Positions 14,767-59,388 are shown, counted from the stretch's first letter. The stretch is DNA of 64,000 nt from an uncultured archaeon (GCA_964486045.1 CAZALK010000015.1:32001-96000); one strand, 5' to 3'. Numbers and translations are program-made. The notes: generated by a model not told the origin, from the letters alone.

Positions 14767-17700
14767 ATGACAAAAATGCATTATAAGCTTAAAATCGTTG
14801 GCTCCATACTGCTATTCTTATTTATATTTAGCAGTGTTCCTCAATTTTTCTTACATGAAATTAATAATAATTCTATAAAGGGGGAAACCGACAAGAATTC
14901 AGAAGAATTAAAATTATCTGCGACATATTGGACGACAACTGAGGTAGTCTCCACCGAGAGTACAGATCCTTCTATGAACCCAACGATTACTGTGGATGGT
15001 AACGGGAACGTGCACGTGGCATGGCATGACTTAACGAATTATAGTGGTTCTGAAACGGATCAGGACATATTTTACAAGCAATGGAACTCCACTAGTAACA
15101 TGTGGACAACAACCGAGGTAATCTCCACCGAGAGTACTCTTGATTCTAAGGCTCCCACAATTGTAGTGGACAGTGTCGGGAACGTGTATGTTGCATGGTC
15201 TGATTTAACGAACTATAGTGATTCAGGAACGGATCGGGACATATTTTACAAGCAATGGAACGCCACTAACAGCATGTGGACAACAACCGAAGTGATCTCC
15301 ACCGAGAGTACAATTGATTCTGAGGCCCCCACCATTGGGGTGGACGTTACTGGGAATATACACATAGCGTGGTTTGATTTAACGAACTATAGCGGTTCGG
15401 AAACGGATCGGGACATATTTTATAAGCAATGGAATGCCACTAGCAGCACGTGGACAACAACCGAGGTGATTTCCACCGAGAGTACTGAAGATTCTTATAC
15501 TCCCACGATTGCGGTGGACGGTATCGGGAACGTGCATGTCGCATGGTATGATTATACGAACTATAGTGATTCGGGAACTGATTGGGACATATTTTACAAG
15601 CAATGGAACTCTACTAGCAGCATGTGGACCACGACCGAGGTAGTCTCTACCGAGAGTAATGGTGGTTCCTATTCCCCTACGATTGTGGTGGACAGTGTCG
15701 GGAATGCGCATGTTGTATGGGGTGATACGACGAATTATAGTGGGTCGGGAACGGAATATGACACATTTTACAAGCGATGGAACGCTACTAGCAGTATATG
15801 GACCATGACCGAGGTGGTATCTACCGAGAGCACGGGAAATTCTTATATGTCTACGATTATGATGGACGGTGCTGGGAATGCACATGTTACGTGGGACGAT
15901 TATACAGATTTTGCCGGAGCTGGATGGGATCGGGACATCTTTTACAAGCAATGGAACGCCACTAGCAGCACGTGGACAACAACCGAGGTGATCTCCACGG
16001 AGAGTATGGATGATTCTTATTTTTCTACGATCGCGGTGGACGGTACTGGGTATGTGCACGTCGCGTGGTGCGATCTAACATATTACGACGGGGCGGGATG
16101 GGATTATGACATATTTTATAAACGAATGAAACTCCTTCGCCAAATTACGATTAATTCCCCAAGTCAAAATGACCTTTTAGCAAGTGTAGCCCCAAATTTC
16201 AATATTACTGTAATAATTTCTAATTTAGATACTATGTGGTATACTTTAGATGGTGGGATAATCAATATAACATTTAGTGGATTAACTGGAACAATTGACC
16301 AAACAGAGTGGAATAAGAAAGGTGATGGCCCTGTTATAATTAGATTTTATGGAAATGATACTATTGGTTTTGAAGTGTATGATGAAGTGACTGTTATTAA
16401 AAGCGTTCCGATTCCTAGTATTATTTCCCCAGAAAATAAAACTTACACCGCTCCGATGAGTGGGTATTACCCTGCAACATTTGGATTTGAAAATGATTTA
16501 AATGGCACCATTCCGGAAGGTTGGTATCAAGTTTTAACATATGGGGGAAGTTCTGAAATCTTAAATGAATATACCAATCATTTTAAGGTAGTTTCTCTTT
16601 ATGATTATAATTCTACAGATCAGATAGATATTATTCACAATTTTACTCAACAAATTTCGGGAGACATCGAATTTTATTTTTACACTAATGATTCTTTTCA
16701 GAGGTTTCATATCTGTATTTCCGAAGATATAAGTGGACTTGTTGATGGTATTTATTTAGATGTTGTTGATGGTAAGGTTACATACAGAGTAGGGCCTGGA
16801 ATTGGTACATGGTATGACATAACTACGCTTTCAAATAACACATGGCACCACTTTTTAATTCAATTTGATTCCACACTTGATAAATTTTGGTTAACACTTG
16901 ATGGGGTAGTATATGGGGGTGTAGGTGGTTTTGATTATCGCATTCCTACTTCAAATTTAAAATCAATTATGTTCAGGAGTGGGACACCGGAATCAAATTT
17001 TAGGGTTTATCTTGATGCGATTAGTTTTTCATGGGATCCTAATTATAATGTTGGTGATAATTTAAATGAAGGTTTATTGCTAAGCTTTGAGAATACTACT
17101 ACACTTGATTGGATTAGCTATTCCTTAGATAATCAACCTAGTAGAACTATATTAGGAAATGCAACTGTTTCAATGCCGGAAGATGGAGTCCATACAATTC
17201 AAGTTTTTGGCAACGACTCAGTAGGAAATTTGTTTCAATCTAATGTGAGATATTTTTCAGTTGATACTAGATCACCACAAATAACTATTAAATCACCAAA
17301 CCAGATTGACTTTTTCGGAACTTTTGTACCCAGTTTTGAAATTGCTATCGTAGAACCTAATTTGAATACTATCTGGTACACACTAGACGATGGGTTGATA
17401 AACAAAACCTTTACCGGATTAAACGGAACAATCGACCAAACAGAATGGGATAAGAAAGGTCACGGAGCTGTAACTATAAGGTTTTATGCTAATGATTCCT
17501 TTGGGAGAGTTGGGTATACGGAAGTGGTTATTAATAAAGATTTAACTCCGCCAACATCTTTAGTTTCTTTCTTTCCCCATAGGGGAATAAATGAAGTAAA
17601 CACATCCACAACATATATTTTAACGGCTGATGATGGATTAGGATCTGGAGTTTCAATAATTAGGTACAAAATAAATAATTCTACTTGGGCGGATTACACT

Positions 17701-17922
17701 GGTCCTTTTGATTTATCTAGTTATGAATATGGATATTATTATATTTCCTACTACGCAATTGATTTAGTGAATAATATTGAAACTGACAATACTCTTTTAG
17801 TTTTATTGGTAAAATTACATAGTGAACAGGTCGTGCCAGGATATCATACGTTTCTGCTGATTGGTATAATATGTGTGGTTTCTGTAATTCTCATTAAAAA
17901 GCGTAATAAAAACAATCTATGA
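14767..17922 (+). CDS. Cell-surface glycoprotein: 7-blade beta-propeller repeats, Ig-like and LamG-like domains, Loki-CTERM-like anchor
   Basis: Signal peptide; seven 58-aa repeats (WTTTEVxSTES...GNVHVAW...DIFYKQWN); Ig-like 'WYTLDGG' repeats; ends VPGY-TM-KKRNK; many N-x-S/T sequons. Confidence 0.85.
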   Translation: MTKMHYKLKIVGSILLFLFIFSSVPQFFLHEINNNSIKGETDKNSEELKLSATYWTTTEVVSTESTDPSMNPTITVDGNGNVHVAWHDLTNYSGSETDQDIFYKQWNSTSNMWTTTEVISTESTLDSKAPTIVVDSVGNVYVAWSDLTNYSDSGTDRDIFYKQWNATNSMWTTTEVISTESTIDSEAPTIGVDVTGNIHIAWFDLTNYSGSETDRDIFYKQWNATSSTWTTTEVISTESTEDSYTPTIAVDGIGNVHVAWYDYTNYSDSGTDWDIFYKQWNSTSSMWTTTEVVSTESNGGSYSPTIVVDSVGNAHVVWGDTTNYSGSGTEYDTFYKRWNATSSIWTMTEVVSTESTGNSYMSTIMMDGAGNAHVTWDDYTDFAGAGWDRDIFYKQWNATSSTWTTTEVISTESMDDSYFSTIAVDGTGYVHVAWCDLTYYDGAGWDYDIFYKRMKLLRQITINSPSQNDLLASVAPNFNITVIISNLDTMWYTLDGGIINITFSGLTGTIDQTEWNKKGDGPVIIRFYGNDTIGFEVYDEVTVIKSVPIPSIISPENKTYTAPMSGYYPATFGFENDLNGTIPEGWYQVLTYGGSSEILNEYTNHFKVVSLYDYNSTDQIDIIHNFTQQISGDIEFYFYTNDSFQRFHICISEDISGLVDGIYLDVVDGKVTYRVGPGIGTWYDITTLSNNTWHHFLIQFDSTLDKFWLTLDGVVYGGVGGFDYRIPTSNLKSIMFRSGTPESNFRVYLDAISFSWDPNYNVGDNLNEGLLLSFENTTTLDWISYSLDNQPSRTILGNATVSMPEDGVHTIQVFGNDSVGNLFQSNVRYFSVDTRSPQITIKSPNQIDFFGTFVPSFEIAIVEPNLNTIWYTLDDGLINKTFTGLNGTIDQTEWDKKGHGAVTIRFYANDSFGRVGYTEVVINKDLTPPTSLVSFFPHRGINEVNTSTTYILTADDGLGSGVSIIRYKINNSTWADYTGPFDLSSYEYGYYYISYYAIDLVNNIETDNTLLVLLVKLHSEQVVPGYHTFLLIGIICVVSVILIKKRNKNNL
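14929..16125 (+). repeat. Seven intragenic tandem repeats, 174-nt period
   Basis: The tgg-acN-...-gagGT-tcNacNgagag unit recurs at 14929, 15103, 15277, 15451, 15625, 15799 and 15973. Confidence 0.92.
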
Positions 17923-18068
17923 TTTTTTTTATATCTCATTTCTTTATATTAAAAAAAAGAAGAGGGAGAAAATTTTTATATAAAAATGGAAATGATTAAT
18001 TAAGTTAAGACAAAAAATTTAGAAAATTCATTTAAAATTTACTAAAAGATAAAAATAAGAGAAAGAAA

Positions 18069-20687
18069 ATGACAAAGACGAGTTGTAAAATACTTAAATC
18101 AATTTTATTATTCATAATGATAATTGGTTCTTATCAAGGCTTGATATTTTCTGAAACTAACAAGAATTCATCGAGGAGCGAGACTATCAATAATTTAGAC
18201 GACTTTGCACAAGACTTAGCTACTTCAACTACAAATTGGGCGACCACAGAAATCCTCTCAAATAGTAGTATAGTAGATTCTTATATACCGGCTGTTGCAT
18301 CAGATGGTGCAGGAAACATTCATGTGACATGGTATGATTGGACAAATAATTATAGTGTATTATACAAGTTTAAGAATGCTACAACTGGAGCATGGGCTGT
18401 AACTGAACTAGTCTCAACAGAGACCATAGATGACTCTTATAGACCTACAATTGCAGTGGATAATGTTGGGAATGTCCATATTGCATGGGAGGATAAAACA
18501 GATTATAATGGTTCTGGAACTGATACTGATATATTTTACAAGTTTAAGAATGCTACTACGGGAATATGGACTAATACTGAAGTAGTATCCACCGAAAGTA
18601 CAGGAGGTGGTGGTTCTTGGTGTCCAGCAATCGCTATCGACGGTATTGGGAATATTCATGTAACATGGTACGATTACACATATCTAGGACCAGGAGCGGG
18701 GCCAGACATATTTTATAAGTTTAAGAACGTCACTACAATGGCATGGACAACAACTGAGGAGATTTCTAACGAGAATTACGGTATTTCTTTGCAGCCGGTG
18801 ATTGTAGCGGATGGTATTGGGAATGTTCATATTGCATGGTTTAACGGCTCTGGTGGGGATATGGGGGATGTGTATTACATATTTAAGAACGCTTCCACAG
18901 GTTTATGGACTACTGTTGAAGAGGTTTCTGCCGAAAGTACAAATGACTCCTCATTACCAACGATTGCATTGGATGGTGTTGGTAATATCCATCTTGCATG
19001 GGAAGATTACACGAATTATAGTGGTTCTGGAACGGATGCTGATATATTTTACAAGTTTAAGAATGCTACCACAGGAACATGGACTAACACTGAAGTAGTA
19101 TCTACCGAAAGCACGGGTGGTTCTAGAGCTCCCGCTATCGCTATAGACAATCTCGGGAACATTCATGTGGGATGGATGGACAACATGTTTTATGATGGTC
19201 ATTTCGGAGCGAATATATTTTACAAGCTTAAGAATAACTTTACTAAAACGTGGACGAAAACCGAGGTAGTCACCACGGAGGGCCCAGATGCTTCTGTTAA
19301 TCCTACTATCACTGTGAATGGTGATCGGAATATTCATATAGTGTGGATGGATAACCTTAATTATTCTGGCGCGGGAACAGACTGGGATATATTTTACAAG
19401 TATTATGAAATGGATTTAACTCCACCAAGCTTAACCGATATACAGGTGAGTAGTGATCCATTATTCTTAAATGGAACCCAAACAATCACATGCAACGTTT
19501 CTGATCCATCTGGGATTTTTAGTATTACTGCTTATATTGAACACCCAGATGAAATTATCATAGCTACAATGGTATTATATGATGATGGACTAAATGGCGA
19601 TGGAAATTTCAATGATGGTATTTATGGAAATATATGGGATTCTAATGGTGTTGCTCTCGGGACATATTTCGTTGATATTCTTGCGTTAGACAATAGTTCA
19701 TTTCAAAATAAGGAACTCATTAACAACGGAGTTAGCTTTATAATAGAAGAAGGACCTCCAATAATCACGATCAATTCTCCTACACCAAGTGCAGTATTTG
19801 GAAATGATGCTCCATCTTATAATGTTTCCATACCTGGGCTCTATCATTCGATGTGGTATACGTTAGATGATGGAGTTACAAATATAACTACAAGTGGACT
19901 AATTGGTATCATAAATCAAACTGAATGGGATAAAGAAGGAGATGGAAATGTTACCATCACATTTTATGCAAACAACACCTTTGGTAAAATTGGTTTTAAT
20001 TCAGTAAAGGTAATAGTAGATAAAAATATCCCCATAATCGATATAAATTCGCCAACAACTAACCAGTTGTTTGAGAATAATATTCCAAGCCCAACATTCA
20101 ATATATGGATTAACGAGACTAATCTAGTAGAAATGTGGTATACATTAAACTCAGAATCATTTAAATATTTCTTTTTAACAAATTCATCAATAAATCAGAA
20201 TGCTTGGAACACTTTGTCAGATGGTACGGTAACAATTAGATTTTATGCAAATGATTCATTAGGAAATATAGGATTTGCAGAAGTAACAATCGGTAAAGAT
20301 ATTAGCGCCCCAATAATAACCATCAATAATCCACAAAATGGTGATATTAATGGAGCTACAGCACCCAATTTTAATATATCTATTATTGAACCATTTTTAG
20401 CTAAAACTTGGTATTCATTAAATGGAGGGAACAACATTACTTTTATGGGGCTAACTGGGACAATAAATCAAGCTTTATGGGATGCTTTATCAGAAGGAAA
20501 CGTTATAATTAGATTTTATGCTAACGATACTTTAGGAAGAATAAGCTTCACTGAAGTTGCTGTTGTAAGGATAATTTCTCAATCAAATCTTCCTGGGATT
20601 CCTGGATACAATATATTATTAATTATTGGAATTGTTTCGACTATAACCGTAATAATCATCAAAAAAAGACTAAATCATATAGGTTAA
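18069..20687 (+). CDS. Cell-surface glycoprotein paralog: beta-propeller repeats, Ig-like domains, Loki-CTERM-like anchor
   Basis: About seven more diverged 'GNIHxxW...DIFYKFKNATT' repeats; 'LYDDGLNGD...NDGIYG' Ca-binding-like motif; three Ig-like repeats; ends IPGYNILLIIG...KKR. Confidence 0.85.
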   Translation: MTKTSCKILKSILLFIMIIGSYQGLIFSETNKNSSRSETINNLDDFAQDLATSTTNWATTEILSNSSIVDSYIPAVASDGAGNIHVTWYDWTNNYSVLYKFKNATTGAWAVTELVSTETIDDSYRPTIAVDNVGNVHIAWEDKTDYNGSGTDTDIFYKFKNATTGIWTNTEVVSTESTGGGGSWCPAIAIDGIGNIHVTWYDYTYLGPGAGPDIFYKFKNVTTMAWTTTEEISNENYGISLQPVIVADGIGNVHIAWFNGSGGDMGDVYYIFKNASTGLWTTVEEVSAESTNDSSLPTIALDGVGNIHLAWEDYTNYSGSGTDADIFYKFKNATTGTWTNTEVVSTESTGGSRAPAIAIDNLGNIHVGWMDNMFYDGHFGANIFYKLKNNFTKTWTKTEVVTTEGPDASVNPTITVNGDRNIHIVWMDNLNYSGAGTDWDIFYKYYEMDLTPPSLTDIQVSSDPLFLNGTQTITCNVSDPSGIFSITAYIEHPDEIIIATMVLYDDGLNGDGNFNDGIYGNIWDSNGVALGTYFVDILALDNSSFQNKELINNGVSFIIEEGPPIITINSPTPSAVFGNDAPSYNVSIPGLYHSMWYTLDDGVTNITTSGLIGIINQTEWDKEGDGNVTITFYANNTFGKIGFNSVKVIVDKNIPIIDINSPTTNQLFENNIPSPTFNIWINETNLVEMWYTLNSESFKYFFLTNSSINQNAWNTLSDGTVTIRFYANDSLGNIGFAEVTIGKDISAPIITINNPQNGDINGATAPNFNISIIEPFLAKTWYSLNGGNNITFMGLTGTINQALWDALSEGNVIIRFYANDTLGRISFTEVAVVRIISQSNLPGIPGYNILLIIGIVSTITVIIIKKRLNHIG

Positions 20688-20947
20688 AATTTTTAGATTT
20701 AACTTTCATTTTATTAATTTTATATTTAAATACTTAATTAATTTGCTCCCAAGTGAAGAAAAACATAAAGATTCTTGATTCTTGAGCACTTACCTAATTT
20801 AAATTGGTGGAGAAAAATTTTGAAAGTAAACGAGTCAGGTTGAACAAGCTAAAAAAGTCTCATTGAACACTCTTTAAATAAGATCCACAATATACCACAT
20901 TATATTAATTTTTTCCTTCATATATATTATGTTATCGGGAAAAAACC

Positions 20948-21037
20948 GTTCCAGGATATAAAGTATTTCTGCTGATTAGTACAATTTGTGTTGTTTTTGT
21001 AATTCTTATTAAAAAACGAAATAAAAATAAAGTTTAA
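20948..21037 (+). pseudogene. Orphan 3'-end copy (Loki-CTERM tail) of the 14767-17922 gene
   Basis: Reads VPGYKVFLLISTICVVFVILIKKRNKNKV* versus VPGYHTFLLIGIICVVSVILIKKRNKNNL* at 17833-17922. Same 90-nt length; downstream 'tttctttatatt' is also shared. Confidence 0.85.
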
Positions 21038-21353
21038 TATTTTTAATTTATCGTTTCTTTATATTCTCGAAAAATTTAGCAGGGATATTACTTAAATTAC
21101 CAGCATAATGGAGTTTTCCATCCTGCTAATTCTGCTTGCTATTAAATAGTCATTTTTAGGTTGTGGTAAAGTAGGAAAAACATATCTGGAGTCCTTTATT
21201 CTATTTTAATAGGAGTTAGGATTCATACCCAACACAACCCAGATCGAATCAACTAGCTATCAATTAATTTTGGATCCATCCAAAAATTGTGAATTTTTTA
21301 TTTATAAAAGGAAAATTTAATTCCTCTTCAAAATTAAACGATTATTGTAACTT

Positions 21354-22619
21354 TTGAAAATGAGAGTTAAATTAAAGAGTTTAATACTGTATATCTTATT
21401 TCTTGCTTTTATTCAGACCCCAAATACTTCCTTATCATCATATTTCAGTTATAATTATCCATTAATCTCTTCTCCTAGTCACGGTGTTTCTAAATATGAT
21501 ATAACCCAGAGCGTGAAATATCAAGTAGAACTTAATTTTTCATTAACACATAAAGCAGGCATAGGTAGCTATATTTTCCAATTTGCTAGGTTAGGTAATC
21601 GCATTCCCAATTCAACCTTTACTAAATATACTCCTCCTTATCAAGAAAGTGCCCTTTTAATAAATGAGATAAGGGGGCCTAAGCCAATTAGTATTAGAAA
21701 GGGGCATCTTGATAAATTCAATAATACATATGACTCATTCAATGCTACATTGTTACCTTATACTCCGAGATTGTCTAAAATAATCCCAAAAGTAACATTT
21801 AGTCAAATATATGTTATAGAATTAAACGCCATCGAATTTCAGGGTATCGAGGACACTGAAATTGGATCGTATGATCCATCTGATAAAATCTTTGAATTAT
21901 ATTGTAATAATCCAGAACAATATTATGAGCGGGACAATCCTGACTTAATTTCCTTATCAAATAGTATCGTAAATTCTGATGATAATCCTATCGAGAAAGC
22001 AGAAAAAATATTTAACTGGGTCTCTGACAACCTTGATTATAATGGGAACCTGCCACCTCAAGAAAAAGGTGCATTATGGGCTTTTAATAATTTAGAGGGT
22101 GATTGCAGTGAGTATTCAAGTTTAATGATTACTTTATTACGGATACAAAATATTCCCGCTCGAAAGATAACGGGATTCCTATTATCTAACGATCCATCAA
22201 TACATCCTAACACAGGTGATACATGGACTTTCTATGCTTCTGAATCAACTTCAAACATCATAGCGCATGCTTGGGTCGAATATTATGTTCCTAATATAGG
22301 GTGGGTTGCTTGTGATCCTACTTGGAATTCCGGGTCAAATTATTTTAACAGAATAGACTTTCTCAGGTTTAACTTAAACATTGGGGCGAATTTCTTCTTT
22401 CCTCCCTCTAATACTGTGAGTGAGTATTTAAATCCACTATTCAGTTATTCCTTTGGTGCCTTGTACGAATATGATTATACTATAAAAATTACTGTGATTG
22501 AATCTAATATTACAAAATTAAGTTCTTTTCCGCAAGTTGTTTTTCTGATTATAATAGTAGGGATCATTGGGATTATCATAGCTACTGTATTTTTTAAAAA
22601 GAAAAGGTATAGAAAGTAA
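21354..22619 (+). CDS. Secreted transglutaminase-like (TGc/cysteine protease-like) protein with C-terminal TM anchor
   Basis: GDCSEYSSLMITLLRIQNIPARKITG (Cys), HAWVEYY (His), GWVACDPT (Asp). Confidence 0.92.
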   Translation: MKMRVKLKSLILYILFLAFIQTPNTSLSSYFSYNYPLISSPSHGVSKYDITQSVKYQVELNFSLTHKAGIGSYIFQFARLGNRIPNSTFTKYTPPYQESALLINEIRGPKPISIRKGHLDKFNNTYDSFNATLLPYTPRLSKIIPKVTFSQIYVIELNAIEFQGIEDTEIGSYDPSDKIFELYCNNPEQYYERDNPDLISLSNSIVNSDDNPIEKAEKIFNWVSDNLDYNGNLPPQEKGALWAFNNLEGDCSEYSSLMITLLRIQNIPARKITGFLLSNDPSIHPNTGDTWTFYASESTSNIIAHAWVEYYVPNIGWVACDPTWNSGSNYFNRIDFLRFNLNIGANFFFPPSNTVSEYLNPLFSYSFGALYEYDYTIKITVIESNITKLSSFPQVVFLIIIVGIIGIIIATVFFKKKRYRK

Positions 22620-22740
22620 GTCATTTATTTTCAATGATAATTATGTTACAAAAATTTTATAAATTTCATATCACATCATTTGATATGCAAAAATTCAATA
22701 TTGCATCAGTTAAAATACGAAATTAAAAAAGATAAAAAAA

Positions 22741-22746
22741 AGGAGG
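22741..22746 (+). promoter_or_regulatory. Shine-Dalgarno-like site
   Basis: AGGAGG ending 10 nt upstream of the ATG at 22757. Confidence 0.55.
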
Positions 22747-22756
22747 ATCAGACGAA

Positions 22757-23332
22757 ATGGCTAATAACGGGAAGAATTTATGGCTATTATTTACAATTTC
22801 GGGGATATTAGGCACAATATCCTTTTTTTTTCCTTTCATCACAGGTCGATTTGATTGGTATTGGGTTTACTATTATCAAAACATGGAGTATTACATAGCA
22901 ATCTTGTTGATTTTGGGAGGAATTTTATTATTACTGATACCAGGAATTTACAGTAAAATAACAGAGAAACATAGTTTAGATCCATTAGGATTTTTTGGGG
23001 GTTTATTTCTACTATTTGCCCCATTAGTATATTTTATGGGAATACCATTCATGCCATTATTTTTTATATGGGTTCAACCAACATTCTTGATTTCTCTCGC
23101 TGGTGGGATTTTAGGATTAATAGCATGGGTACTTGGACTCAAATATAATAAACTAAATAAGATAAGTAAAGCTGGAATGACTCTAACATCCTATGGATTT
23201 ATGGCTTATCTAGTTAACTTTATTATACCTTCACCATCTTCTTGGGCTTTCTATTTTGTGGTAGGTCCAGTTTGGATTTTAATCGGCTTTGTTATCTTTG
23301 GAATTGGACTCATAAAATCAATGTTTAAATAA
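22757..23332 (+). CDS. Multi-pass membrane protein of unknown function
   Basis: 191 aa, about 6 Gly-rich TM segments, own SD site, T-rich tract after the stop. Confidence 0.8.
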   Translation: MANNGKNLWLLFTISGILGTISFFFPFITGRFDWYWVYYYQNMEYYIAILLILGGILLLLIPGIYSKITEKHSLDPLGFFGGLFLLFAPLVYFMGIPFMPLFFIWVQPTFLISLAGGILGLIAWVLGLKYNKLNKISKAGMTLTSYGFMAYLVNFIIPSPSSWAFYFVVGPVWILIGFVIFGIGLIKSMFK

Positions 23333-23530
23333 TTCAAACTTTTTTTTCTTTTTATCTAAAATTAGTCCGTTTTGATTTATAATAGATATTTGAATCTTTT
23401 CTAAAAATCTAATTATTTTTTTATTTCATTTTTATATAATTTTCAATTCAAAAATAAGGTTGTAAAATTAACAATCCCAATTTTTATCAAATTTCATCTG
23501 ATTTTTCAATCCACCAACAAAATCAGGTTA

Positions 23531-23586
23531 TCTAGAAAATAAAAAATGAATAAGAAATAATACTAATAATCTGTTAAATAGATTAC
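23531..23586 (+). repeat. Direct repeat copy 1 (~55 bp, 22-bp exact core with palindrome)
   Basis: tctagaaaataaaaaatgaataagaaataatactAATAATCTGTTAAATAGATTAC aligns with 26302-26356. The core at 23565-23586 is identical to 26335-26356. Confidence 0.88.
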
Positions 23587-23590
23587 CGAC

Positions 23591-23899
23591 TCAAATTATT
23601 TTAACAGAATTGATTTTCTCAGATTTAACTTAAATATCGGTGCAAATTTCTTCTTTCCTCCTTCTAATACGGTAAGTGAGTATTTAAATCCGCTATTTAG
23701 TTATTCCTTTGGTGCCTTGTATGAATATGATTACACATTAAAAATTACTGTTATTGAATCGAATATTTCAACCTTAGATTCATTTCCCGATGTTGTTTTC
23801 TTGATTATTATTGTAGGGATCATTGGTGTTATCATAGCTATTGTAGTTTTAAAAAAGAAAAGTCATAGAAAGGATGTTAAAATATATCCAAAGTATTAA
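23591..23899 (+). pseudogene. Orphan 3'-end copy of the transglutaminase-like gene
   Basis: Aligns in frame to 22335-22619. The first 49 codons are identical in amino acids with 15 synonymous changes. An in-frame TAG lies just upstream (23579-23581). Confidence 0.92.
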
Positions 23900-24008
23900 G
23901 ATATTTTATATTTTCTTGAAGACTTGGAAAAAGGAACAATAATTCAATCAATTTTATAAATCTTTTGCTATTATTTCTATATATTTAAAAGACAGAGATA
24001 AAAGAATT

Positions 24009-26264: not shown

Positions 26265-26286
26265 GAAGAATCAGGTTCCACAACCC

Positions 26287-26309
26287 TTACTAAATATGAG
26301 ATTTAGTAA
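26287..26309. other. Perfect 9-bp inverted repeat downstream of 24009-26264
   Basis: TTACTAAAT-atgag-ATTTAGTAA; could be a terminator or a binding site. Confidence 0.45.
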
Positions 26310-26932: not shown

Positions 26933-26934
26933 AG

Positions 26935-50377: not shown

Positions 50378-50401
50378 AAAAGATCAGGAGATCAAATATC
50401 A

Positions 50402-51418
50402 ATGAGTATGATTAAATATATAATCCGAAGGCTTTTAGTACTATTACCGGTATTATTTGGAGTAATTACATTGACATTTATATTATCTAGATTAATGCCA
50501 GGAGATCCGGTTTTAGCACATCTTCCTAGAAATTTTTCGGCAGAGGATTATACTAACGCACTCCGTGCACTCGGACTTCATCTCCCCATACTTCAACAAT
50601 ACGTAATTTTCCTTGGAGATTTGTTTACTGGTAATTGGGGTACTTCCGTTTCGGTTGCCCAAGGTGCTCCAATATGGGATCTCGTTTTAGAGCGATTTTT
50701 TAGAACTTTTGATATTGCGATATTCGCTATTGTTATTGCTGCATTTTTGGGAATTAAAACTGGAGTGATTTCAGCAACAAACAGAAATAAAGCTAAAGAT
50801 ACAGTATTAAGGGGATTTGCCCTTGTAGGAGTTGCCATTCCAGTATTCTGGATGGGAATGTTGCTCCAATACTTTTTAGCTTTTAGAATACCCATTTTTC
50901 CTGGGGTTGGATATAAAACAGCGGGTATTGGTGATCCTCCGAAAATTACTTATTTTAGGATAATTGATAGTATCTTAGCTGGAGATATGCGTTTACTCGT
51001 AGATTATATACAGCATCTAATTTTACCTGTAGCATGTTTATCCTTTATAACTCTTGCATCAATTACTAGACAAACTCGTTCGAGTATGTTGGAAATTTTA
51101 CAGCAGGATTATGTAAGAACTGCTAGAGCGAAAGGTTGTAAAGAAAAAGATGTGATAAAAACCCATGCCCGTAAAAATGCGTTAATTCCAACTATGACAA
51201 TTATAGGATTAAACTTTGGAGGTTTGTTAACGGGAGCTATTCTTACTGAGACGACTTTTAATTTGCATGGATTAGGTGAATTATTAATTGTGGCGATACG
51301 GAATACGGATTATTGGGTACTTAACGGAGTTGTATTTGTTACTACAATTACCTTTATCACTGTGAATTTAGGTGTTGATATTCTTTATGGATTTGTAGAT
51401 CCAAGAATAAGATTCTAA
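50402..51418 (+). CDS. dppB: Peptide ABC transporter permease
   Basis: 'YIIRRLL...PGDP', 'QDYVRTARAKG' EAA loop, 'DPRIR'. Confidence 0.95.
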   Translation: MSMIKYIIRRLLVLLPVLFGVITLTFILSRLMPGDPVLAHLPRNFSAEDYTNALRALGLHLPILQQYVIFLGDLFTGNWGTSVSVAQGAPIWDLVLERFFRTFDIAIFAIVIAAFLGIKTGVISATNRNKAKDTVLRGFALVGVAIPVFWMGMLLQYFLAFRIPIFPGVGYKTAGIGDPPKITYFRIIDSILAGDMRLLVDYIQHLILPVACLSFITLASITRQTRSSMLEILQQDYVRTARAKGCKEKDVIKTHARKNALIPTMTIIGLNFGGLLTGAILTETTFNLHGLGELLIVAIRNTDYWVLNGVVFVTTITFITVNLGVDILYGFVDPRIRF

Positions 51419-51450
51419 TTCAAACTTACAAAATTATAGGTGAAAAATTT

Positions 51451-52464
51451 ATGGGACAAAGATATGAACAAGAACTTACAGAAGAAGAGGAATTGGGGGA
51501 GGAGAAGAAAGAGAGCGTACTAAAAAATACAGTCTCTTGGATTTTCACCAATATTAAATTCCTCCTTATTCCAGGTTATCGATTAGAAGAATTATCAAAT
51601 CGGGAAAAAGACTACGAAAAATCTATAAGTAAAAGAAAATTCATTCGAAGATTAAAATCAGTCTTAACTATCTTGGGTATTGTAATTATTTTTGTAATTA
51701 TAACTTTTGCCGTTTTAGGACCCTGGCTTGCTCCATACACTTTTGAGGAAGCAAATGGAGTTTTCGATAATTGGTGGGCAGCTGCATCACCAGAACATGT
51801 ATTAGGAACAACTATGTTTGGACGTGATATTTTATCAAGATTAATTTATGGGGCCAGATCTTCATTAACCATTGCTTTACCGGCAATATCATTTAGTGTT
51901 ATTCTTGGTGTTATACTTGGTGTTATTTCCGGATATTACGGCGGATGGATTGATTCATTAATAATGAGAATTGCGGATGTCTTTTTTGCTTTCCCTGGAA
52001 TTATTCTGGCTCTAGTCTTTGTTGCAATTTGGGGACAAAGGATGGAGTACATAATGCTGGCTTATGGAATACTTGGCGTACCTTATTATTCACGTATAAT
52101 TCGAGGATCTGTCTTACAAGCTCGAGAATTACCCTACATTGAAGCGGCAAAAGCATCGGGGGCAGGAAATTGGAGGATTATGTTTAAACATATACTTCCA
52201 AATACTATTCAACCCATTATAATTTCATTTACATTCGATATCGGTGGCATCATTTTAAGCTTGGCAGGTCTTAGCTTTTTGGGGTATAGTGATTATAGGC
52301 TAATTGAATGGGGAAACGACATTAGTGCTGCTAGGCTTCATCTATATGATGCTCCATGGACAGCTCTTTGGCCCGGATTTATGATCTTAATAACTGTACT
52401 AGGTTTTATGTTAGTCGGTGATGGATTAAGAGATGCCCTAGATCCGAGATTAAGAAACTTGTAG
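51451..52464 (+). CDS. dppC: Peptide ABC transporter permease
   Basis: 'HVLGT..FGRDILSRLIYGAR', 'YIEAAKASGA', 'GDGLRDALDPR'. Confidence 0.95.
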   Translation: MGQRYEQELTEEEELGEEKKESVLKNTVSWIFTNIKFLLIPGYRLEELSNREKDYEKSISKRKFIRRLKSVLTILGIVIIFVIITFAVLGPWLAPYTFEEANGVFDNWWAAASPEHVLGTTMFGRDILSRLIYGARSSLTIALPAISFSVILGVILGVISGYYGGWIDSLIMRIADVFFAFPGIILALVFVAIWGQRMEYIMLAYGILGVPYYSRIIRGSVLQARELPYIEAAKASGAGNWRIMFKHILPNTIQPIIISFTFDIGGIILSLAGLSFLGYSDYRLIEWGNDISAARLHLYDAPWTALWPGFMILITVLGFMLVGDGLRDALDPRLRNL

Positions 52465-52563
52465 AACGTTATCAATATATTACCGAGTCAATAGTTATTA
52501 CTGGTTGAAAAAGAAAATAGTGAATCTGGTTAAAAAAGAAATAGATTTATTGAAAATAAGAAA

Positions 52564-53799
52564 ATGAATCAAACGAAATTAGATGTAGAAAAAGAGTCAA
52601 GAGACCTGCTTGAAATTAAAGATCTTAAAACAAATTTCTATACAGAAGAAGGGATTGTTAAAGCAGTAGACGGTGTTTCATTTGATATATACCAAGATGA
52701 GATCCTTGGCCTTGTTGGTGAAACGGGGTGCGGAAAATCAGTCACAGCACTTTCTATTTTACGCCTTGTGAGAGCACCAGGAAAAATAATCAACGGGACC
52801 ATAAAGTTTAATGGTGTCAATTTGCTGGAGTTATCTGAAGGACAAATGAGGGAATATCGTGGCAACAACATAACTATGATATTTCAGGATCCACTAAATT
52901 CACTTAATCCAGTAATGTCAGTTGGAAAACAAATATCGGAAGTATTTTTATTACATCAGGAAGAAGAACTTAAGAAAATCATTGATAAACGAAATTCAGA
53001 GCGAAAAATACAGAAACTAGAAATAAAAGAACTAAAAAGGGAATTTAAAATAAATAAAGACCGTTTAACAGAAGATGAAAGGAGCGATTTTAGAGTAAAA
53101 ATAAAAGATCTAAAAGCCAAAATACCTAAAAAACCTTACCTGAAAAATATTGCATGGGAAAGATCGGAAGATATTATTAAAGAAGTAGGAATTGCAGATG
53201 CAGCAGGTATCCTAAAAAGATATCCGCATGAGTTAAGTGGGGGTATGAGACAACGTGTAATGATTTCAATGGCACTATCTTGTAACCCCCAACTGCTAAT
53301 CGCAGATGAACCTACTACTGCCTTGGATGTAACTATCCAAGCTCAGATTCTTGATTTAATGAAAATTTTGAAAAAGAAATTTAAAACATCAATTCTAATG
53401 ATAACTCATGATTTAGGTATAATTGCGGATTTGTGTGATCGGGTAGCTGTCATGTATAGTGGAAACATTGTTGAATATGCAACGGTAAAAGATTTATTTA
53501 AAAATCCTCGGCACCCCTACACGAAAGGACTTATTGGTGCAATTCCAAGCATAGAAAAGAAAGATCAAAAATTACTTACTATTCGAGGAATGGTACCAAA
53601 CTTGATTTTTCCCCCGTCTGGCTGCAGATTCCACCCAAGGTGTGATTATCGATTGGAAATCTGTAATAAAATAAGACCTAAATGGATTGAAATCGCAAAG
53701 AAATACTTAGTTGCTTGCCACCTTTTCGATCCTGATCATAAAAATTCCCCAAAACATGAGTGGGGTAAAGCGGAAGATAAAGAATCTTATAAAATATAA
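52564..53799 (+). CDS. dppD: Peptide ABC transporter ATPase with charged insert
   Basis: GETGCGKS, YPHELSGGMRQR, IADEPTTALD, HPYT, GCRFHPRC. Confidence 0.95.
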   Translation: MNQTKLDVEKESRDLLEIKDLKTNFYTEEGIVKAVDGVSFDIYQDEILGLVGETGCGKSVTALSILRLVRAPGKIINGTIKFNGVNLLELSEGQMREYRGNNITMIFQDPLNSLNPVMSVGKQISEVFLLHQEEELKKIIDKRNSERKIQKLEIKELKREFKINKDRLTEDERSDFRVKIKDLKAKIPKKPYLKNIAWERSEDIIKEVGIADAAGILKRYPHELSGGMRQRVMISMALSCNPQLLIADEPTTALDVTIQAQILDLMKILKKKFKTSILMITHDLGIIADLCDRVAVMYSGNIVEYATVKDLFKNPRHPYTKGLIGAIPSIEKKDQKLLTIRGMVPNLIFPPSGCRFHPRCDYRLEICNKIRPKWIEIAKKYLVACHLFDPDHKNSPKHEWGKAEDKESYKI

Positions 53800-53840
53800 C
53801 AATTAAAATTGGTAGACTAGTTGAAAGGAAATAAAAAAAA

Positions 53841-55187
53841 ATGATTAACCATAACGACGAAATAAACAATTCAATGGCAGAAAATATAAAAACTTCGAGT
53901 AAAAAGAAAGAAGTTATTCTAGCCGTTAAAGATCTCAAGACATATTTCCCCATATATGGTGGAATTTTTAAGCGGACAATTGGATATGTCAAGGCAGTAA
54001 ATGGGGTCACTTTTGACCTTTATAAAGGAGAAACACTTGGTTTAGTTGGAGAGAGTGGTTGCGGAAAAACTACTATCGGGAACAGTATATTAAATCTTGT
54101 ACCAGCTACCTCAGGAAAAATTTTCTATAAAGGACATAATATCGTATTAGGAAAGACTGAAAGAAAAGAAAAAACTCAAAAATTACGAGAAGAAAATGAT
54201 TTAAAGAATATTATATTAATTCCAGTAATTCGTTTTGCTCTAATATTTTTAGGTGCATTCCTCAGACGAACAAAAACAAACTTAAAGCAAATCTATCAAA
54301 CCACAAAGAATTATTTAGCTAAATTACACCCATCTTTAAGGGATGCATTTACTGCTATGATATCTTTCTCAAAACGAAATTATCTTAATATAAGTAGAAT
54401 AAAGCGCGGATATAATAAAGAATTACGAAGGAAAATTCAAATTGTGTTTCAAGATCCTGATTCTTCATTAAATCCACGTTGGAAAACAGTTAATATTATA
54501 GGAGAACCGCTTAGAATTCTCTTAGGAATGAGAAAAAGGAGAAAAATTCGTAGACGTGTCCTTGAAATTCTAGAAACCGTTTCAATGAAGATGGAGCACT
54601 TGGATAGATATCCACATGAATTTTCTGGTGGTCAAAAACAAAGAATTGTAATAGGTAGAGCTCTAGCACCTAATCCTGAAATTGTGATTTTAGACGAACC
54701 AACTTCCGCTCTAGATGTGTCCGTTCAAGCCCAAATTTTAAATTTATTAAAAGACCTCCAAGAAAAATTTGATTTTTCCTATTTATTTATTACTCATGAT
54801 TTAAGCGTAATACAACATATAGGAGATAGAATTGTAGTAATGTACCTTGGTAAATTCGTAGAGACTGGAAACATTGATGATGTATTTTACGATCCTAAAC
54901 ATCCATATACCAGAGCACTATTGTCAGCTCGACCTACATTCGATCCTACAACAAGACAAACCAGAATTATATTAGAGGGTGATGTACCTAGCCCAATTAA
55001 TCCACCTATTGGATGTGCTTTTCACCCTAGATGCCCAGAAAAAGATAAACATATTGGATGTGATGTAGACGAACCTAGGAAAATTCATATCGGGGGTGAC
55101 CATTACATTTATTGCCTACCATACAAGCATGAACAAGGCTCCTATGAAGGAAAGACAGTTATCTCAGATACTTGGAGAAAATCTTAA
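53841..55187 (+). CDS. dppF: Peptide ABC transporter ATPase with insert
   Basis: GESGCGKT, YPHEFSGGQKQR, LDEPTSALDVSVQAQ, GCAFHPRC. Confidence 0.95.
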   Translation: MINHNDEINNSMAENIKTSSKKKEVILAVKDLKTYFPIYGGIFKRTIGYVKAVNGVTFDLYKGETLGLVGESGCGKTTIGNSILNLVPATSGKIFYKGHNIVLGKTERKEKTQKLREENDLKNIILIPVIRFALIFLGAFLRRTKTNLKQIYQTTKNYLAKLHPSLRDAFTAMISFSKRNYLNISRIKRGYNKELRRKIQIVFQDPDSSLNPRWKTVNIIGEPLRILLGMRKRRKIRRRVLEILETVSMKMEHLDRYPHEFSGGQKQRIVIGRALAPNPEIVILDEPTSALDVSVQAQILNLLKDLQEKFDFSYLFITHDLSVIQHIGDRIVVMYLGKFVETGNIDDVFYDPKHPYTRALLSARPTFDPTTRQTRIILEGDVPSPINPPIGCAFHPRCPEKDKHIGCDVDEPRKIHIGGDHYIYCLPYKHEQGSYEGKTVISDTWRKS

Positions 55188-55408
55188 TTCTATCCTAAAT
55201 GGCATAAATTTTAATGTCTTGTACTAAATTTGTATAAAAATTATTTTAAACAACTTGGATTTATTTTGATCCCTCCTCAAATATTGAAGATATCTTTTTA
55301 TTTCACTCTATTTTTATTTTTTACCTAAGATTTACGGAACATTTATTGAAATTTATCGATTAATTAATGAAAATAAAAAAGTTAAAGGATTATGATTTTA
55401 AATAGATA

Positions 55409-56581
55409 ATGACTTCAAAAAATTCCCAAATATTTGTATTAAAAACTTCACCTGAAACAATCTTAGAAGATTATAAAGATTTAATGCATTTAGCAAATTA
55501 TGAACGATTTTATAATAAGGATAGTAAGACTATTATCAAACTCAATTTAAGCTGGTCAAAATTCTTCCCTGCTTGCTCAAGCCCTCCTTGGCAGGTAGAG
55601 GGTATCTTAAAAACGATGACGGATGATGGGTACGATCCACAAAGACTTTTCCCCTCAGAAAACCGTACGGTTGTCACTAATATCGAGCGAGGCTTAAAAG
55701 GTAATAAGTGGGGTCCAATTATTAAAAAATATAATACCAGGTTTATCCCCTTAACACGAATACCCTTTGTTCCATATGAGTCTTTAAGACGTAAATTTCT
55801 TAGCTTAAAAAATCAAAAATTGCATGTTTTAGATTCTGAAATATTTCCAGAGGGTTTTAAAATTCCAAAATTTTATGTTGGTAAACAGATTATTCATGCA
55901 CCCACCATCAAAACACATGGTCATACTGGAGCTATAGGGGGTAGTTTAAATCACACTAAAGGAGAATTAAAGCATGGTGGTATCACATGCGCTATGAAAA
56001 ATGCATTTGGTGGACTTTTGACCAAAAGAAGGCATTTTTCACATCAATTTATGTCAGAAGTACTCGTTGATCTCTTAATTATTCAAAAACAAATTCATCC
56101 GAGCGTAATGGCAATCGTAGACGGAACAGTTTGCGGAGATGGTGCTGGTCCAAGAACCATGATACCTCGAATAAAAAATTATTTAATAGCAGGTTATGAT
56201 CAAGTTGCGATTGATACCGTTATCGCTAAAATGCTAGGTTTTCAGCCATTAAAATTACCTGCAATAAAATTAGCAAACGATGAAGGATTAGGTTGCGGTG
56301 ATTTTGATCAAATTGAAATAATAGGAAAAGATATCTCAAGTATCAATTGGAATTTTAAAGTTAAACGTAGTTTAGTTATATGGGGTGATCAAATGGTAAG
56401 AAAAGGCTCGCTAAAATTTATTAATCCACTTCTTAAGAATAAGATCTTTTTTATGGGACCGATTTTAGGTTCTTTAATTTATCATGATTTGTTTTGGTAT
56501 CCAATAATAGGAAAGCGTAGAATAAAGAATTTTATGAAAACTAAATGGGGGGATGTATTTAAAAATTATCCAGAGAGTTAA
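55409..56581 (+). CDS. DUF362 domain protein
   Basis: 'IIKLNLSW', 'PTIKTH', 'TCAMKNAFG', 'IVDGT..GDGAGP', 'DQVAID..AKMLG'. Confidence 0.85.
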   Translation: MTSKNSQIFVLKTSPETILEDYKDLMHLANYERFYNKDSKTIIKLNLSWSKFFPACSSPPWQVEGILKTMTDDGYDPQRLFPSENRTVVTNIERGLKGNKWGPIIKKYNTRFIPLTRIPFVPYESLRRKFLSLKNQKLHVLDSEIFPEGFKIPKFYVGKQIIHAPTIKTHGHTGAIGGSLNHTKGELKHGGITCAMKNAFGGLLTKRRHFSHQFMSEVLVDLLIIQKQIHPSVMAIVDGTVCGDGAGPRTMIPRIKNYLIAGYDQVAIDTVIAKMLGFQPLKLPAIKLANDEGLGCGDFDQIEIIGKDISSINWNFKVKRSLVIWGDQMVRKGSLKFINPLLKNKIFFMGPILGSLIYHDLFWYPIIGKRRIKNFMKTKWGDVFKNYPES

Positions 56582-56823
56582 GAAAGTCAATTCCAGTTAA
56601 TAATTATCTTATCATAGAGTACATTATCTGGTTTTGGTCAACTAATACGGTATCTAGCATAGTGTCAATTTAAAAGGTTAATCACTTATTTGTGCTATTT
56701 ATGAGAATAAAAACACTTTACAGACAATTTATCTTAATTTTTATAATATTACAATAATCTTGATATATAATTTTAAATTTTGAGCTTTAACGTAGGAAAT
56801 TTTTTTTAGCAAAAAGCAATACG

Positions 56824-58080
56824 ATGGATATTTCGGATTTAAAACTACATCACAATAAAGGGATAATACAACACATAAATCTATTAATGTTTGAGCGTAT
56901 AGCAGGAACAAAAGGAGAAACTAAAGCGATAAATTATATTCAAAAAGAATTAAATAATGAAAATGTTGATAACATTCTTGAATCTTTTAAATGGTCTAAA
57001 ACGATAGATATTTTGGTTAAATCGATAGCCATTTGTATCTTTTGGTCAACCATCCTTTTTGAGGTAACTATTTTATTAAACCTTGCCTGGTTAATGGTTA
57101 TTCTTGATTTATTTTTTATTGGGGTTATTTATTTTCTTGTAATAAACTTCTACGATATGACTCATTTAATGTTACTAGGTAAAAGGAAAAAATCAAAAAA
57201 CATTATCGCTAAAGTATCCGCAGTGGAAAAAAAAGATAAAAGTCCTCTTATTATTTTTACTGCTCACTATGATTCAATTTCAGCAAAATATCCTTATAAT
57301 TTAAAAAAATTTTTTTATTTATTGGTAATAACCATAAGTTTTCCAATTATTTTTTCAACACTTATTATATCTGAATGGACAGTTTTAACATACTTTTTTG
57401 ATTCTTATAAAACTAATTCATATGCAGCTTTATTGTCTAAATCCATCGATTTTTCCCATATGTCCCTTATTTTCTTGATTGTCGCCATCCTTATACTTCT
57501 ATTTAATAGAGAACGAAGTCAGTCGTTGGGTTCAATTGACAATGCCAGTGGAGTTTCAATTTTAATTGAGCTTGCAAAAATTTTAAACAAAAATCCTCTG
57601 AAGCACATCGATATTATATTCTTATGGAGCGGGGCTGAAGAATGGGGTTTATGGGGTTCAAAGCAATTCTGTATAAAGCATTTTGACGAATTAAATGAGG
57701 AATATGATCTTAATAAATCTTATAACATCAATATTGATATGGTAGGGACATACGTCGGACTTATAAACAAAACAGGCATAATCAGGAAAAAAGAGACTGA
57801 AAAATTAATCAATTTTTTAGATTCCTCAGCAAAAAAATTAAACGTGCCCTTAGATAAATATAATTTAGCTTTAGAACCAAGAAGCGACCATAATACATTT
57901 CGATCATTTGCTAAAAAAACCAGAAAAAAAATGCAATCATGTTGCTTTTTATCTAATCAAGATTCAAAATACATTCATTCTTCGAGAGATACCCCAAATA
58001 AGTGTTCATCTAAAAATCTTAATTGGTGTGTCGATATTTGTTATGATGCTATTAAAAATTTAGATTTGGAAACAATGTAG
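56824..58080 (+). CDS. M28-family peptidase with inserted TM segments
   Basis: 'AHYDS', 'GSIDNASG', 'GAEEWGLWGS', 'INIDMVG', 'SDH', 'IHSSRD'; four hydrophobic helices. Confidence 0.88.
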   Translation: MDISDLKLHHNKGIIQHINLLMFERIAGTKGETKAINYIQKELNNENVDNILESFKWSKTIDILVKSIAICIFWSTILFEVTILLNLAWLMVILDLFFIGVIYFLVINFYDMTHLMLLGKRKKSKNIIAKVSAVEKKDKSPLIIFTAHYDSISAKYPYNLKKFFYLLVITISFPIIFSTLIISEWTVLTYFFDSYKTNSYAALLSKSIDFSHMSLIFLIVAILILLFNRERSQSLGSIDNASGVSILIELAKILNKNPLKHIDIIFLWSGAEEWGLWGSKQFCIKHFDELNEEYDLNKSYNINIDMVGTYVGLINKTGIIRKKETEKLINFLDSSAKKLNVPLDKYNLALEPRSDHNTFRSFAKKTRKKMQSCCFLSNQDSKYIHSSRDTPNKCSSKNLNWCVDICYDAIKNLDLETM

Positions 58081-58308
58081 ACTAAATGAGGCAAAATATC
58101 TTATGAAACCTTGAATTAATATTAATTGTTAGACTTTAACCATATTCTTTTGTTAAGAATTTCCGCCTACAAGCACTATATTGTATTTTCTCCTATTTTT
58201 TGGTAATAATCACTTTTAAAATAATCCAACTCCAAAGGGGGAAATTTGAAAAACAGCGCTAAGCTAATTTTTTTCTTTTAGCAGCACTAAAAATATAAAT
58301 AATTCCGA

Positions 58309-58791
58309 TTACCACACTATAGGTAGACGGTAATCTGGAAAGAGTGCTGAGTAAATTGCTAAAAAAATAAAGATTATTGCCGTTAATATTATTATAAGAA
58401 CGATTAATCCCGTAATATCTCGTGGTGAAAACCGAGTTCTAGTTTTTATTTTGTGTTTAGGGATTGCAACTTTCTCAATTAACCAATTTTTATAAGATTT
58501 TGTTAACTTTCCCTTTTCTAATGGATTTTCTCCTGAAGATCCCTTAAAAAATTCTTGAGTTTCTACAGAATTTATCGCAAGATATGCTTTTTTGATTCTT
58601 ACTCTCTCAAATGCAAAATCAATACTTGAAAAGCTGATGATTATAATGGGTACTGATATATACCAATAAAAAAATACGAGCAATACAAAACGAATAACAA
58701 ATTGGAAATAAAATGTTGCTACCATGATGGATATAATAATAACACCAATAAAAGCAAAACATTTTGTGTCTTCCTTAGATGGTAAAGGCAT
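58309..58791 (-). CDS. Hypothetical membrane protein
   Basis: 160 aa with 3 TMs. Confidence 0.7.
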   Translation of the reverse strand: MPLPSKEDTKCFAFIGVIIISIMVATFYFQFVIRFVLLVFFYWYISVPIIIISFSSIDFAFERVRIKKAYLAINSVETQEFFKGSSGENPLEKGKLTKSYKNWLIEKVAIPKHKIKTRTRFSPRDITGLIVLIIILTAIIFIFLAIYSALFPDYRLPIVW

Positions 58792-59148
58792 GAAAATAAT
58801 CTCTTTTTTATATAAAGACTTTTATTGTTTTGTGTTAATTAAATTTTCATTTAATTATTTATCTTACCATTTTAAAGCATAAAAAAGTTTGATATAAAAA
58901 TTCTAACTTTAAATTAGAGATGATCAGATGGAAGAAAAATTATGGGGAATTTTAGGCTTGTACAAACTCCTACATGATATTTTTACTGAAATCTTTAATA
59001 AAATAATCTAAACTTGAAAATCATGGATTATTTCAATGATTTTATATCTTAACATGGAAATTTCTCTTCTATTAACAATTATCGATCCTTTCCTTATTTT
59101 CTATTACGTTTTCATTAGGTTGCACCTATCTTTCTCTATACAGACAAA

Positions 59149-59388
59149 ATTAACTGGAATTTTAAAGTTAAACGAAGTTTGGTAATATGGGGGGACCAAA
59201 TGGTACGCAAGGGGCCACTCAGTTTTATTAATCCACTTCTTAAAAATGAGCTCTTTTTTATGGCCCCAATTTTAGCTTCATTAGTCTATCATGATATGAT
59301 TTGGTATCCTACTGTAGGAAAACGTAGAATTAAGAGATTCATGAAAACAGAGTGGGGTAAGGTATTCAAAAATTATCCAAAAAATTAG
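59149..59388 (+). pseudogene. Orphan 3'-end copy of the DUF362 gene
   Basis: In-frame and the same 240-nt length as 56342-56581; 63/79 aa identical with many synonymous changes; no 5' part. Confidence 0.92.

Follow-up and report, generated by a model that had tools for sequence, protein, structure and literature searches.

Orphan gene ends in a Loki-type Asgard archaeon as probable scars of recombinase-free gene addition

Insertion with long target duplication (Nobusato et al. 2000; Furuta, Abe & Kobayashi 2010, PMC2853133) leaves small gene units between direct repeats of the target, 46-423 bp in length and often overlapping the 3' end of a gene (PMC2853133). The repeats differ hardly at all, either from each other or from the empty site, the units carry neither integrase nor transposase, and the mechanism was left unresolved; the cargo consists of restriction-modification genes in bacteria, and no archaeal case passed that screen (PMC2853133). 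Displacement of C-termini and orphan 3' ends are also known from rhs, cdiA and type VI secretion system (T6SS) effector-immunity loci (Jackson 2009; Kirchberger 2017, PMC5361080), where the displacement was attributed to homology-facilitated illegitimate recombination, the proposal being that one side is anchored by homology and the other joined illegitimately (PMC5361080). Here we analyse a 64,000-nucleotide stretch (the window; CAZALK010000015.1:32001-96000) from the genome of an uncultured Loki-type Asgard archaeon. Three genes in the window (the parents, at loci A, B and C) are each followed by other genes (the cargo) and then by a start-less copy of their own 3' end (the orphan). We consider the three orphan tails to be probable non-functional scars of recombinase-free recombination that adds DNA at gene ends.

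The loci resemble long target duplications in having gene units between long repeats at gene ends and no mobility genes. They differ in the divergence of the repeats, which resembles that of orthologs (72-97% identity), in their mixed cargo and in the number of scars, about 50 in one archaeal genome; near-identity of the target-duplication type is seen only in other pairs of this genome, and there only over 5' blocks. With rhs, cdiA and T6SS loci they share the layout of a gene, new downstream genes and a displaced 3' end on one strand, free of integrase, and the addition of successive modules. In those systems, however, the new tip, a polymorphic toxin, bears no relation to the old one and its immunity gene makes up the cargo, whereas here the homology of the two ends extends as far as the stop codon, ordinary genes are involved and displaced heads occur in mirror image. 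The window cargo includes a membrane protein, an M28 peptidase and a surface-protein paralog, and no cognate immunity gene.

Integrative elements such as e14 and phage 21 in the icd gene of Escherichia coli target the end of a protein-coding gene and carry a replacement end. The gene is kept intact by the element-borne end, which differs mainly at synonymous positions, and the original end is displaced to the far side of the insert. Loci A, B and C, in contrast, have no integrase and at most a short exact core, and hold one or two ordinary genes, while an island on another contig (C23) does match this type. Diversity-generating retroelements resemble our loci in placing a copy of the gene 3' end downstream, after an accessory gene. 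They were rejected as an explanation: the mismatches are not adenine-specific and fall at codon position 3, and there is no reverse transcriptase on the window contig, C15. Two reverse transcriptases are present in the genome (C41:635-1309 and C14:142544-142948). As to integrons, contig C15 has no tyrosine recombinase and no common repeat bounds the cargos; attC folding was not searched. The architecture is not treated in a study of Asgard mobile elements (PMC11529989). It is best read as a known type of scar that is new for archaea at a density of about 50 in one genome.

Parent genes and their orphan tails

The window genome (G000) comprises 5.18 Mb in 45 contigs; relatives are coded G0xx for genomes and L0xx for loci, those of metagenomic relatives included. 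Parents and cargo products were named by Pfam, and ratios of nonsynonymous to synonymous divergence (dN/dS) were calculated by the Nei-Gojobori method (NG86). An earlier note on this DNA had described three start-less 3'-end copies, on the same strand as their parents, in frame and without stops, and all three were located by alignment:

Pair A, + strand: parent tail 17832-17950, orphan 20947-21065; 119 nt, 79.8% identity, no gaps
Pair B, + strand: parent tail 22335-22616, orphan 23591-23872; 282 nt, 86.5% identity, no gaps
Pair C, + strand: parent tail 56342-56580, orphan 59149-59387; 239 nt, 80.3% identity, no gaps

BLAST E-values for the pairs range from 1e-23 to 1e-93 within the window. 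The orphans, all in frame and on the + strand, contain no internal stops and have no start codon at the homology boundary. The 5' edges of homology are sharp in all pairs; the homology ends at about the stop codon in B and C, and 28 nt past it in A. The cargo is not repeated after the orphan at any of the three loci. Divergence is spread evenly along the repeats, and the longest exact runs (12 nt in A, 23 nt in B, 20 nt in C) are all internal to them. The repeats (119-282 nt) exceed 30 bp, and a single-copy counterpart is seen in relatives as the single DUF362 gene of locus C. Near-identity of the kind found in target duplications is absent from the three pairs, at 79.8%, 86.5% and 80.3% and with synonymous divergence (dS) of 0.5-1.2.

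The divergence of the tails had been claimed to be like that of orthologs under purifying selection, and this is borne out in B and C by a bias to the third codon position, which holds 27 of the 38 differences in B and 30 of the 47 in C, and by low dN/dS (0.106 at dS 0.60 in B; 0.092 at dS 1.22 in C). The ratio for A, where the repeat is short and partly non-coding, is about 0.38. None is near 1, the value that the earlier note had named as contrary to its reading, and tails of at least 100 nt genome-wide have a median dN/dS of 0.21 (range 0.08-0.5). The lack of stop codons was set aside as weak evidence of selection, since stop-free frames arise under the inferred neutral load with a simulated probability of 0.2-0.6; amino-acid and third-position counts were used instead. 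Amino-acid changes are so few that the orphans can have evolved neutrally for no more than roughly a tenth of the total divergence. For most of the time since its split from the parent tail, each orphan therefore belonged to a working gene.

The junctions are not artefacts of assembly. A Logan contig of the probable source run, a marine-sediment metagenome, spans 19040-26464 (7.4 kb) with no differences at a depth of 257, and the contigs flanking it have depths of 254-286. Since Logan contigs (k=31) come from a separate assembler, and this one spans the loci at even depth, the A and B junctions are not scaffolding artefacts. Locus C, including the orphan, recurs in sister strain R (L075/L085), an ENA scaffold that is also in Logan and represents a separate assembly of a different sample, with 18 mismatches and no gap over 12 kb (99.85%). 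A chimeric co-assembly, in which two strains were joined head to tail, would find some ground in a minor related strain in the source sample, represented by a depth-12 contig that begins at 26326. It is scarcely credible: the Logan contig crosses every junction of A and B at the depth of its flanks, locus C recurs in an assembly from another sample, and the orphan B junction described below lacks any common sequence able to mislead a graph assembler. Assembly chimera was accordingly ruled out, by the Logan contig for A and B and by sister strain R for C. Contigs of the X1 run contain no joint that skips or circularises the cargo; contigs drop rare variants and are silent on excised forms.

Structure of the three loci

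Locus B consists of the following features:

21354-22619, + strand: parent B, a 421-aa transglutaminase-like (TGase) membrane protein (PF01841, E 5e-25)
22335-22616, + strand: T1, the tail of parent B used for alignment and dN/dS
22757-23332, + strand: cargo B1, a 191-aa polytopic membrane protein with no Pfam family
23530-23586, + strand: X, 84% identical to the first 57 nt of the conserved right flank, of which it is a diverged copy
23591-23899, + strand: orphan B (T2), with an open frame from 23582, 86.5% nucleotide identity to T1 and 9 additional codons at its end
24009-26264, + strand: cargo B2, a 751-aa SBBP beta-propeller protein
26301-26356, + strand: X', the start of the conserved right flank, with the imperfect palindrome AATCTGTTAAATAGATT

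X terminates in GATTAC, 4 nt short of T2, and the junction places 57 nt of right-flank sequence next to about nucleotide 982 of the gene, at the edge of a diverged tract. The X/T2 junction shows an imperfect microhomology of the GAtTaCCG type to the TGase sequence immediately upstream of T1. The joints at A and C are either old or altered since they formed. The same layout, T1-cargo-X/T2-cargo-X', is found again at C13:129682-136620. The palindrome AATCTGTTAAATAGATT lies at 26330-26356, with a copy at 23559-23586, and homology to three genomes begins there; it may act as a terminator or be prone to recombination.

Identity to sister strain R changes abruptly at 26322. To the right it is 99.3% over 26322-31766 and 99.85% over 50309-62279; to the left, over at least 21 kb (4871-26322), it is 84-93%, with 90.5% over 21282-22504, 93.2% over 10321-14536 and 86.4% over 7565-10112. 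The sharpness of the switch implies that one of the two strains exchanged at least 21 kb of DNA with a diverged lineage. The contents of the slot that runs from the TGase tail to 26322 differ from genome to genome: the window genome has the 191-aa gene, X, T2 and the 751-aa gene, R has three beta-propeller genes, and a JGI relative (L077) has one 168-aa gene. T1 resembles T2 more than either resembles the tail of R or of the JGI relative, most of all in the membrane anchor. A closer donor was sought in all 54 genomes of the genus, and none exceeded 77-80% nucleotide identity. Synteny of the TGase gene among species representatives was uninformative, with common neighbours at just 1 of 13 loci. 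A fragment ending 57 nt into the right flank would have been joined illegitimately to about nucleotide 982 of the gene, the other side being homologous; the product would be the same if a T-cargo-X fragment had circularised and come in through a single crossover.

Locus C comprises the following:

55409-56581, + strand: parent C (copy a), a 390-aa DUF362 protein with orthologs in 41 of 41 relatives
56342-56580, + strand: the tail of parent C used for alignment and dN/dS
56738-59148, both strands: cargo C, made up of an M28 peptidase (56824-58080, +), a 160-aa membrane protein (58309-58791, -) and a 357-nt spacer
59149-59388, + strand: orphan C (copy b, gene nucleotides 934-1173), 80.3% identical to the parent tail
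59424-60206, - strand: an S4/FtsJ (TlyA-like) methyltransferase, the usual downstream neighbour of DUF362 in most relatives

The neighbourhood of DUF362 was compared in 19 of the 54 genus genomes and in one genome of the same order. Among same-genus relatives its immediate downstream neighbour is mostly either the convergent TlyA-like gene or the one beyond it, and orphan C, 36 nt from the stop of the TlyA-like gene, occupies the position of the DUF362 3' end in most of the relatives examined. The TlyA-like gene is itself variably present, with none in G001, G005, L079 and L080/L083. In G014 and G016 the M28 and 160-aa genes lie upstream of DUF362, and no DUF362 remnant was found between the ABC and M28 genes of these two genomes. 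None of the 54 genus genomes has a second DUF362 match beside the first; G041 alone has two full-length copies, on different contigs.

Three metagenomic relatives (L079, L080 and L083) carry a DUF362 gene 91% identical to the parent in nucleotides, and all have the order DUF362-M28-h160. The cargo spacer of the window is also present in L080 and L083, up to about 59135; a second DUF362 copy was sought in both and no remnant was found. In L079 the second copy persists as two pieces in different frames, corresponding to gene nucleotides 717-797 and 1009-1173. Orphans are 85% identical to each other, parents 90-91%, and orphans to parents 76-81%. In a tree of the tails, parents and orphans each have a clade of their own (support 99 and 80, respectively); a weak node (60) unites these two clades, apart from 20 other species. 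The L079 pieces and the tree together indicate that the two-copy state is older than these lineages, and that the second copy was once longer and has been decaying independently. At least orphan C among the three is, on these comparisons, an old, decaying relic. The additive integration put forward in the earlier note holds here for the displacement of a gene end; the notion of a fresh capture of the tail alone does not, given the once longer second copy and a structure fixed at 99.85% in R.

These observations bring in the possibility of a local origin, in which a tandem or segmental duplication within the lineage gave rise to two complete copies, both long functional, before one of them was recently truncated from the side facing the cargo, with no import of DNA. 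The former length of the second copy at C, the sister clades of copies a and b (at the weak joint support of 60%) and the closeness of T1 to T2 all speak for it. Against it, the cargo is not duplicated after any orphan, orphan B abuts a truncated copy of the right flank, giving two units with unrelated cargo, and locus B lies at the edge of an 84-93% tract in a genome otherwise 99.3-99.85% identical to R, which shows import at that locus. The lack of an adjacent second DUF362 in all 54 genus genomes is likewise difficult to reconcile with it, the two copies of G041 being on different contigs. We regard a purely local origin of all three loci as unlikely, if worth serious attention. For C itself, a second copy from another lineage and a long-lived local paralog are both compatible with the data, and the same applies to A.

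The setting of locus A is a surface-protein island:

14537-21281, + strand: island of 6.7 kb with both surface-protein genes and orphan A, absent from sister strain R
14767-17922, + strand: parent A, a 1051-aa surface protein with BNR/SBBP beta-propeller repeats and a C-terminal PGY...KKR membrane anchor
17832-17950, + strand: repeat A1, the final 91 nt of parent A and 28 nt past its stop
18069-20687, + strand: cargo A, an 872-aa paralog of parent A with its own anchor
20947-21065, + strand: orphan A, a copy of the 30-aa C-terminal membrane anchor in an open frame at 20909-21037, 79.8% identical to A1

The 119-nt repeats enclose a 3.1-kb unit, which is the paralog. This corrects a detail of the earlier description; a frameshifted extension of cargo A was also considered and ruled out, because the gene ends in an anchor and a stop codon of its own. 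The island is bounded by an 8-nt direct repeat, AAAAATTG, at 14529-14536 and 21282-21289. Homology to L075 of strain R stops at 14536 and restarts at 21282, the two ends overlapping by 8 nt in L075 (9923-9930), and in R the TGase gene directly adjoins the gene at 13849-14472. AAAAATTG could be a target duplication of the island or the trace of a microhomology deletion in R. A short contig of the X2 run joins 17929 to 21046, weakly, with just 63 nt on one side, and hints at a form without the 3.1-kb unit. Since A sits in a tandem array of paralogs, which also favours a local origin, unequal exchange among paralogs is as likely at this locus as import.

Displaced gene ends across the genome

A genome-wide search for orphan tails, as suggested in the earlier note, was carried out by comparing 3491 open reading frame (ORF) products of at least 150 aa with their 12-kb surroundings. 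Only isolated fragments were kept, that is, those with a single high-scoring segment pair and a frame closing within 40 codons on both sides, and duplicates were removed. Isolated tails on the same strand lie downstream of their parents in 35 cases and upstream in 3 (binomial p 7e-8). Isolated heads on the same strand show the reverse polarity, with 18 upstream and 6 downstream (p 0.02); the remainder comprises 10 opposite-strand and 4 internal fragments. The polarity indicates an arrangement of either [whole gene]-cargo-[tail] or [head]-cargo-[whole gene], and the architecture, contrary to what had been supposed, is not specific to 3' ends. A tandem duplication with a breakpoint inside the gene would yield the same polarity, to the credit of a local origin. 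The genome contains about 50 such scars, or about 10 per Mb. A flank repeat abutting the orphan is confined to a minority of cases: locus B, C13:129682 and 3 of the 9 orphan-head cases checked (C7:104162, C11:174015 and C20:79025).

Recombinases are scarce. The whole genome has 5 matches to PF00589 (tyrosine recombinase) and 2 to PF01609 (DDE_Tnp_1), and none to TnpB (PF01385), serine recombinase (PF00239) or rve (PF00665); none of the five families has a match on contig C15. Among 30 clean cases, an integrase is present in one (C23:49483-60113) and a transposase in one (C1:834216). The absence of integrase and transposase reported for the window in the earlier note is thereby confirmed for these families on its contig, and with one case of each extends to most of the clean cargos. 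The 75 cargo ORFs match 71 Pfam families, none common to all. The commonest families are PAS histidine kinases, PIN, LRR and Schlafen/AlbA_2, and the 25 commonest include no recombinase family. The cargo had been described as envelope or membrane genes throughout; this applies to the window only, the genome-wide cargo being a mixture of PAS kinases, PIN toxins, LRR and Schlafen-type proteins.

The orphans could also be remains of site-specific integrative elements, decayed or mobilised in trans, whose integrase acted at a gene end and brought a replacement end, and was later lost or acts from elsewhere. The island C23:49483-60113 (L074) is exactly such a case: it occupies the 3' end of a 759-aa gene and has 8.2 kb of cargo with a 413-aa tyrosine recombinase, which lies beside a displaced tail of 96.8% amino-acid identity. 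Resemblance to attL/attR is also seen in a second class of six other pairs, which have an exact block at the 5' edge (168, 135, 80, 51, 50 and 25 nt) followed by a diverged tail. The pairs with blocks of 50-168 nt are:

C4:66881-68711
C13:131481-133182
C2:310717-314187
C1:31522-32513
C13:50593-51944

As an account of loci A, B and C, elements of this kind are nevertheless improbable. A tyrosine integrase occurs in 1 of the 30 clean cargos and nowhere on contig C15, with 5 in 5.2 Mb; exact blocks do not exceed 23 nt in B and 20 nt in C, where differences are evenly spread; the cargo is one or two ordinary genes; and orphan heads occur in mirror image. The targets are many and unrelated, which makes a single trans-acting integrase unlikely. 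The exact-block pairs seem recent and seem to reflect another mechanism or a further one. Their formation requires a site-specific step, or else a crossover within the repeat accompanied by gap repair or gene conversion.

A dedicated system, integron-like or of silent cassettes, would retain the orphan tails for a purpose, either as anchors for recombination or as a store of sequence for diversifying the envelope. The surface and membrane proteins of the window cargo and the still open frames of the orphans would agree with it. It is nonetheless very improbable, because the cargo is heterogeneous genome-wide, no gene or site is common to the loci, and open frames are expected by chance at the simulated frequencies given above. 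The orthologous orphans at C also evolve faster than the live copies (85% against 90-91%), one being frameshifted and split (L079) and one lineage having lost it. The suggestion of an integron-like system is therefore not sustained, in view of the missing conserved site and common gene and of orphans that resemble decaying relics. The arrangement is a general and passive type of scar and not an integron-like capture system, and its link to the envelope is local.

An array of related membrane-protein genes at C1:858299-875627 (L061) contains several orphan 3' fragments of 250-270 nt, 80-92% identical, with other genes between them.

Origin of the orphan ends and significance

The reading that we consider probable, recombinase-free addition of DNA at gene ends, would proceed as follows. 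Homologous DNA from a diverged relative or from a second copy, carrying a version of the gene end together with different neighbour genes, would enter by one homologous crossover and one illegitimate join of the microhomology type, or else as a circularised fragment by a single crossover with an equal product. The result would be [whole gene]-[other genes]-[second gene-end copy]. Survivors would be the arrangements that leave one intact gene, which would account for tails lying downstream and heads upstream, and the redundant copy would then decay slowly by deletions and substitutions. The exact pathway is inferred, and either copy may be the native one. Additive integration, as the earlier note proposed it, stands in its core of displaced gene ends without a recombinase, and the geometry, the polarity and the B junction fit the two pathways that it named. 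As to single alleles in relatives, which it proposed to look for, relatives have a single DUF362 at locus C, and no near-identical single allele was found for B or C.

Several observations weigh against this reading. No near-identical donor or single-allele form for B or C is present among the sequences found, and T1/T2 and copies a/b are each other's nearest relatives among all of them, which leaves room for an origin within the lineage. At locus B the microhomology is imperfect. At locus C, L079 retains gene nucleotides 717-797 of the second copy, and the 5' edge of orphan C may be the endpoint of a later deletion rather than the original junction. The exact 5' blocks of six pairs are not predicted by a simple reciprocal crossover. 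Finally, the density of about 10 scars per Mb comes from this one genome and may be ordinary.

The genome is poor in classical mobile-element enzymes, yet it bears about 50 polarised scars of gene addition at gene ends. Such scars allow events to be dated, point out places of frequent insertion such as the slot ending at 26322, and lend themselves to counting across genomes. If their density is unusual, they point to a recombination habit specific to the lineage; if not, they are ordinary relics to be annotated as pseudogene fragments. More speculatively, and against the balance of probability, Loki-type Asgard genomes might owe much of their gene gain to the recombinase-free additive joining of diverged alleles at gene ends, a route open to counting. 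The window genome would be a case in point, with about 10 scars per Mb, almost no transposases or integrases and long-lasting relics, and unequal recombination between chromosome copies in polyploid or fused cells is one conceivable cause. Asgard genomes are large for archaea, and the way in which they gain genes bears on models of the origin of eukaryotes.

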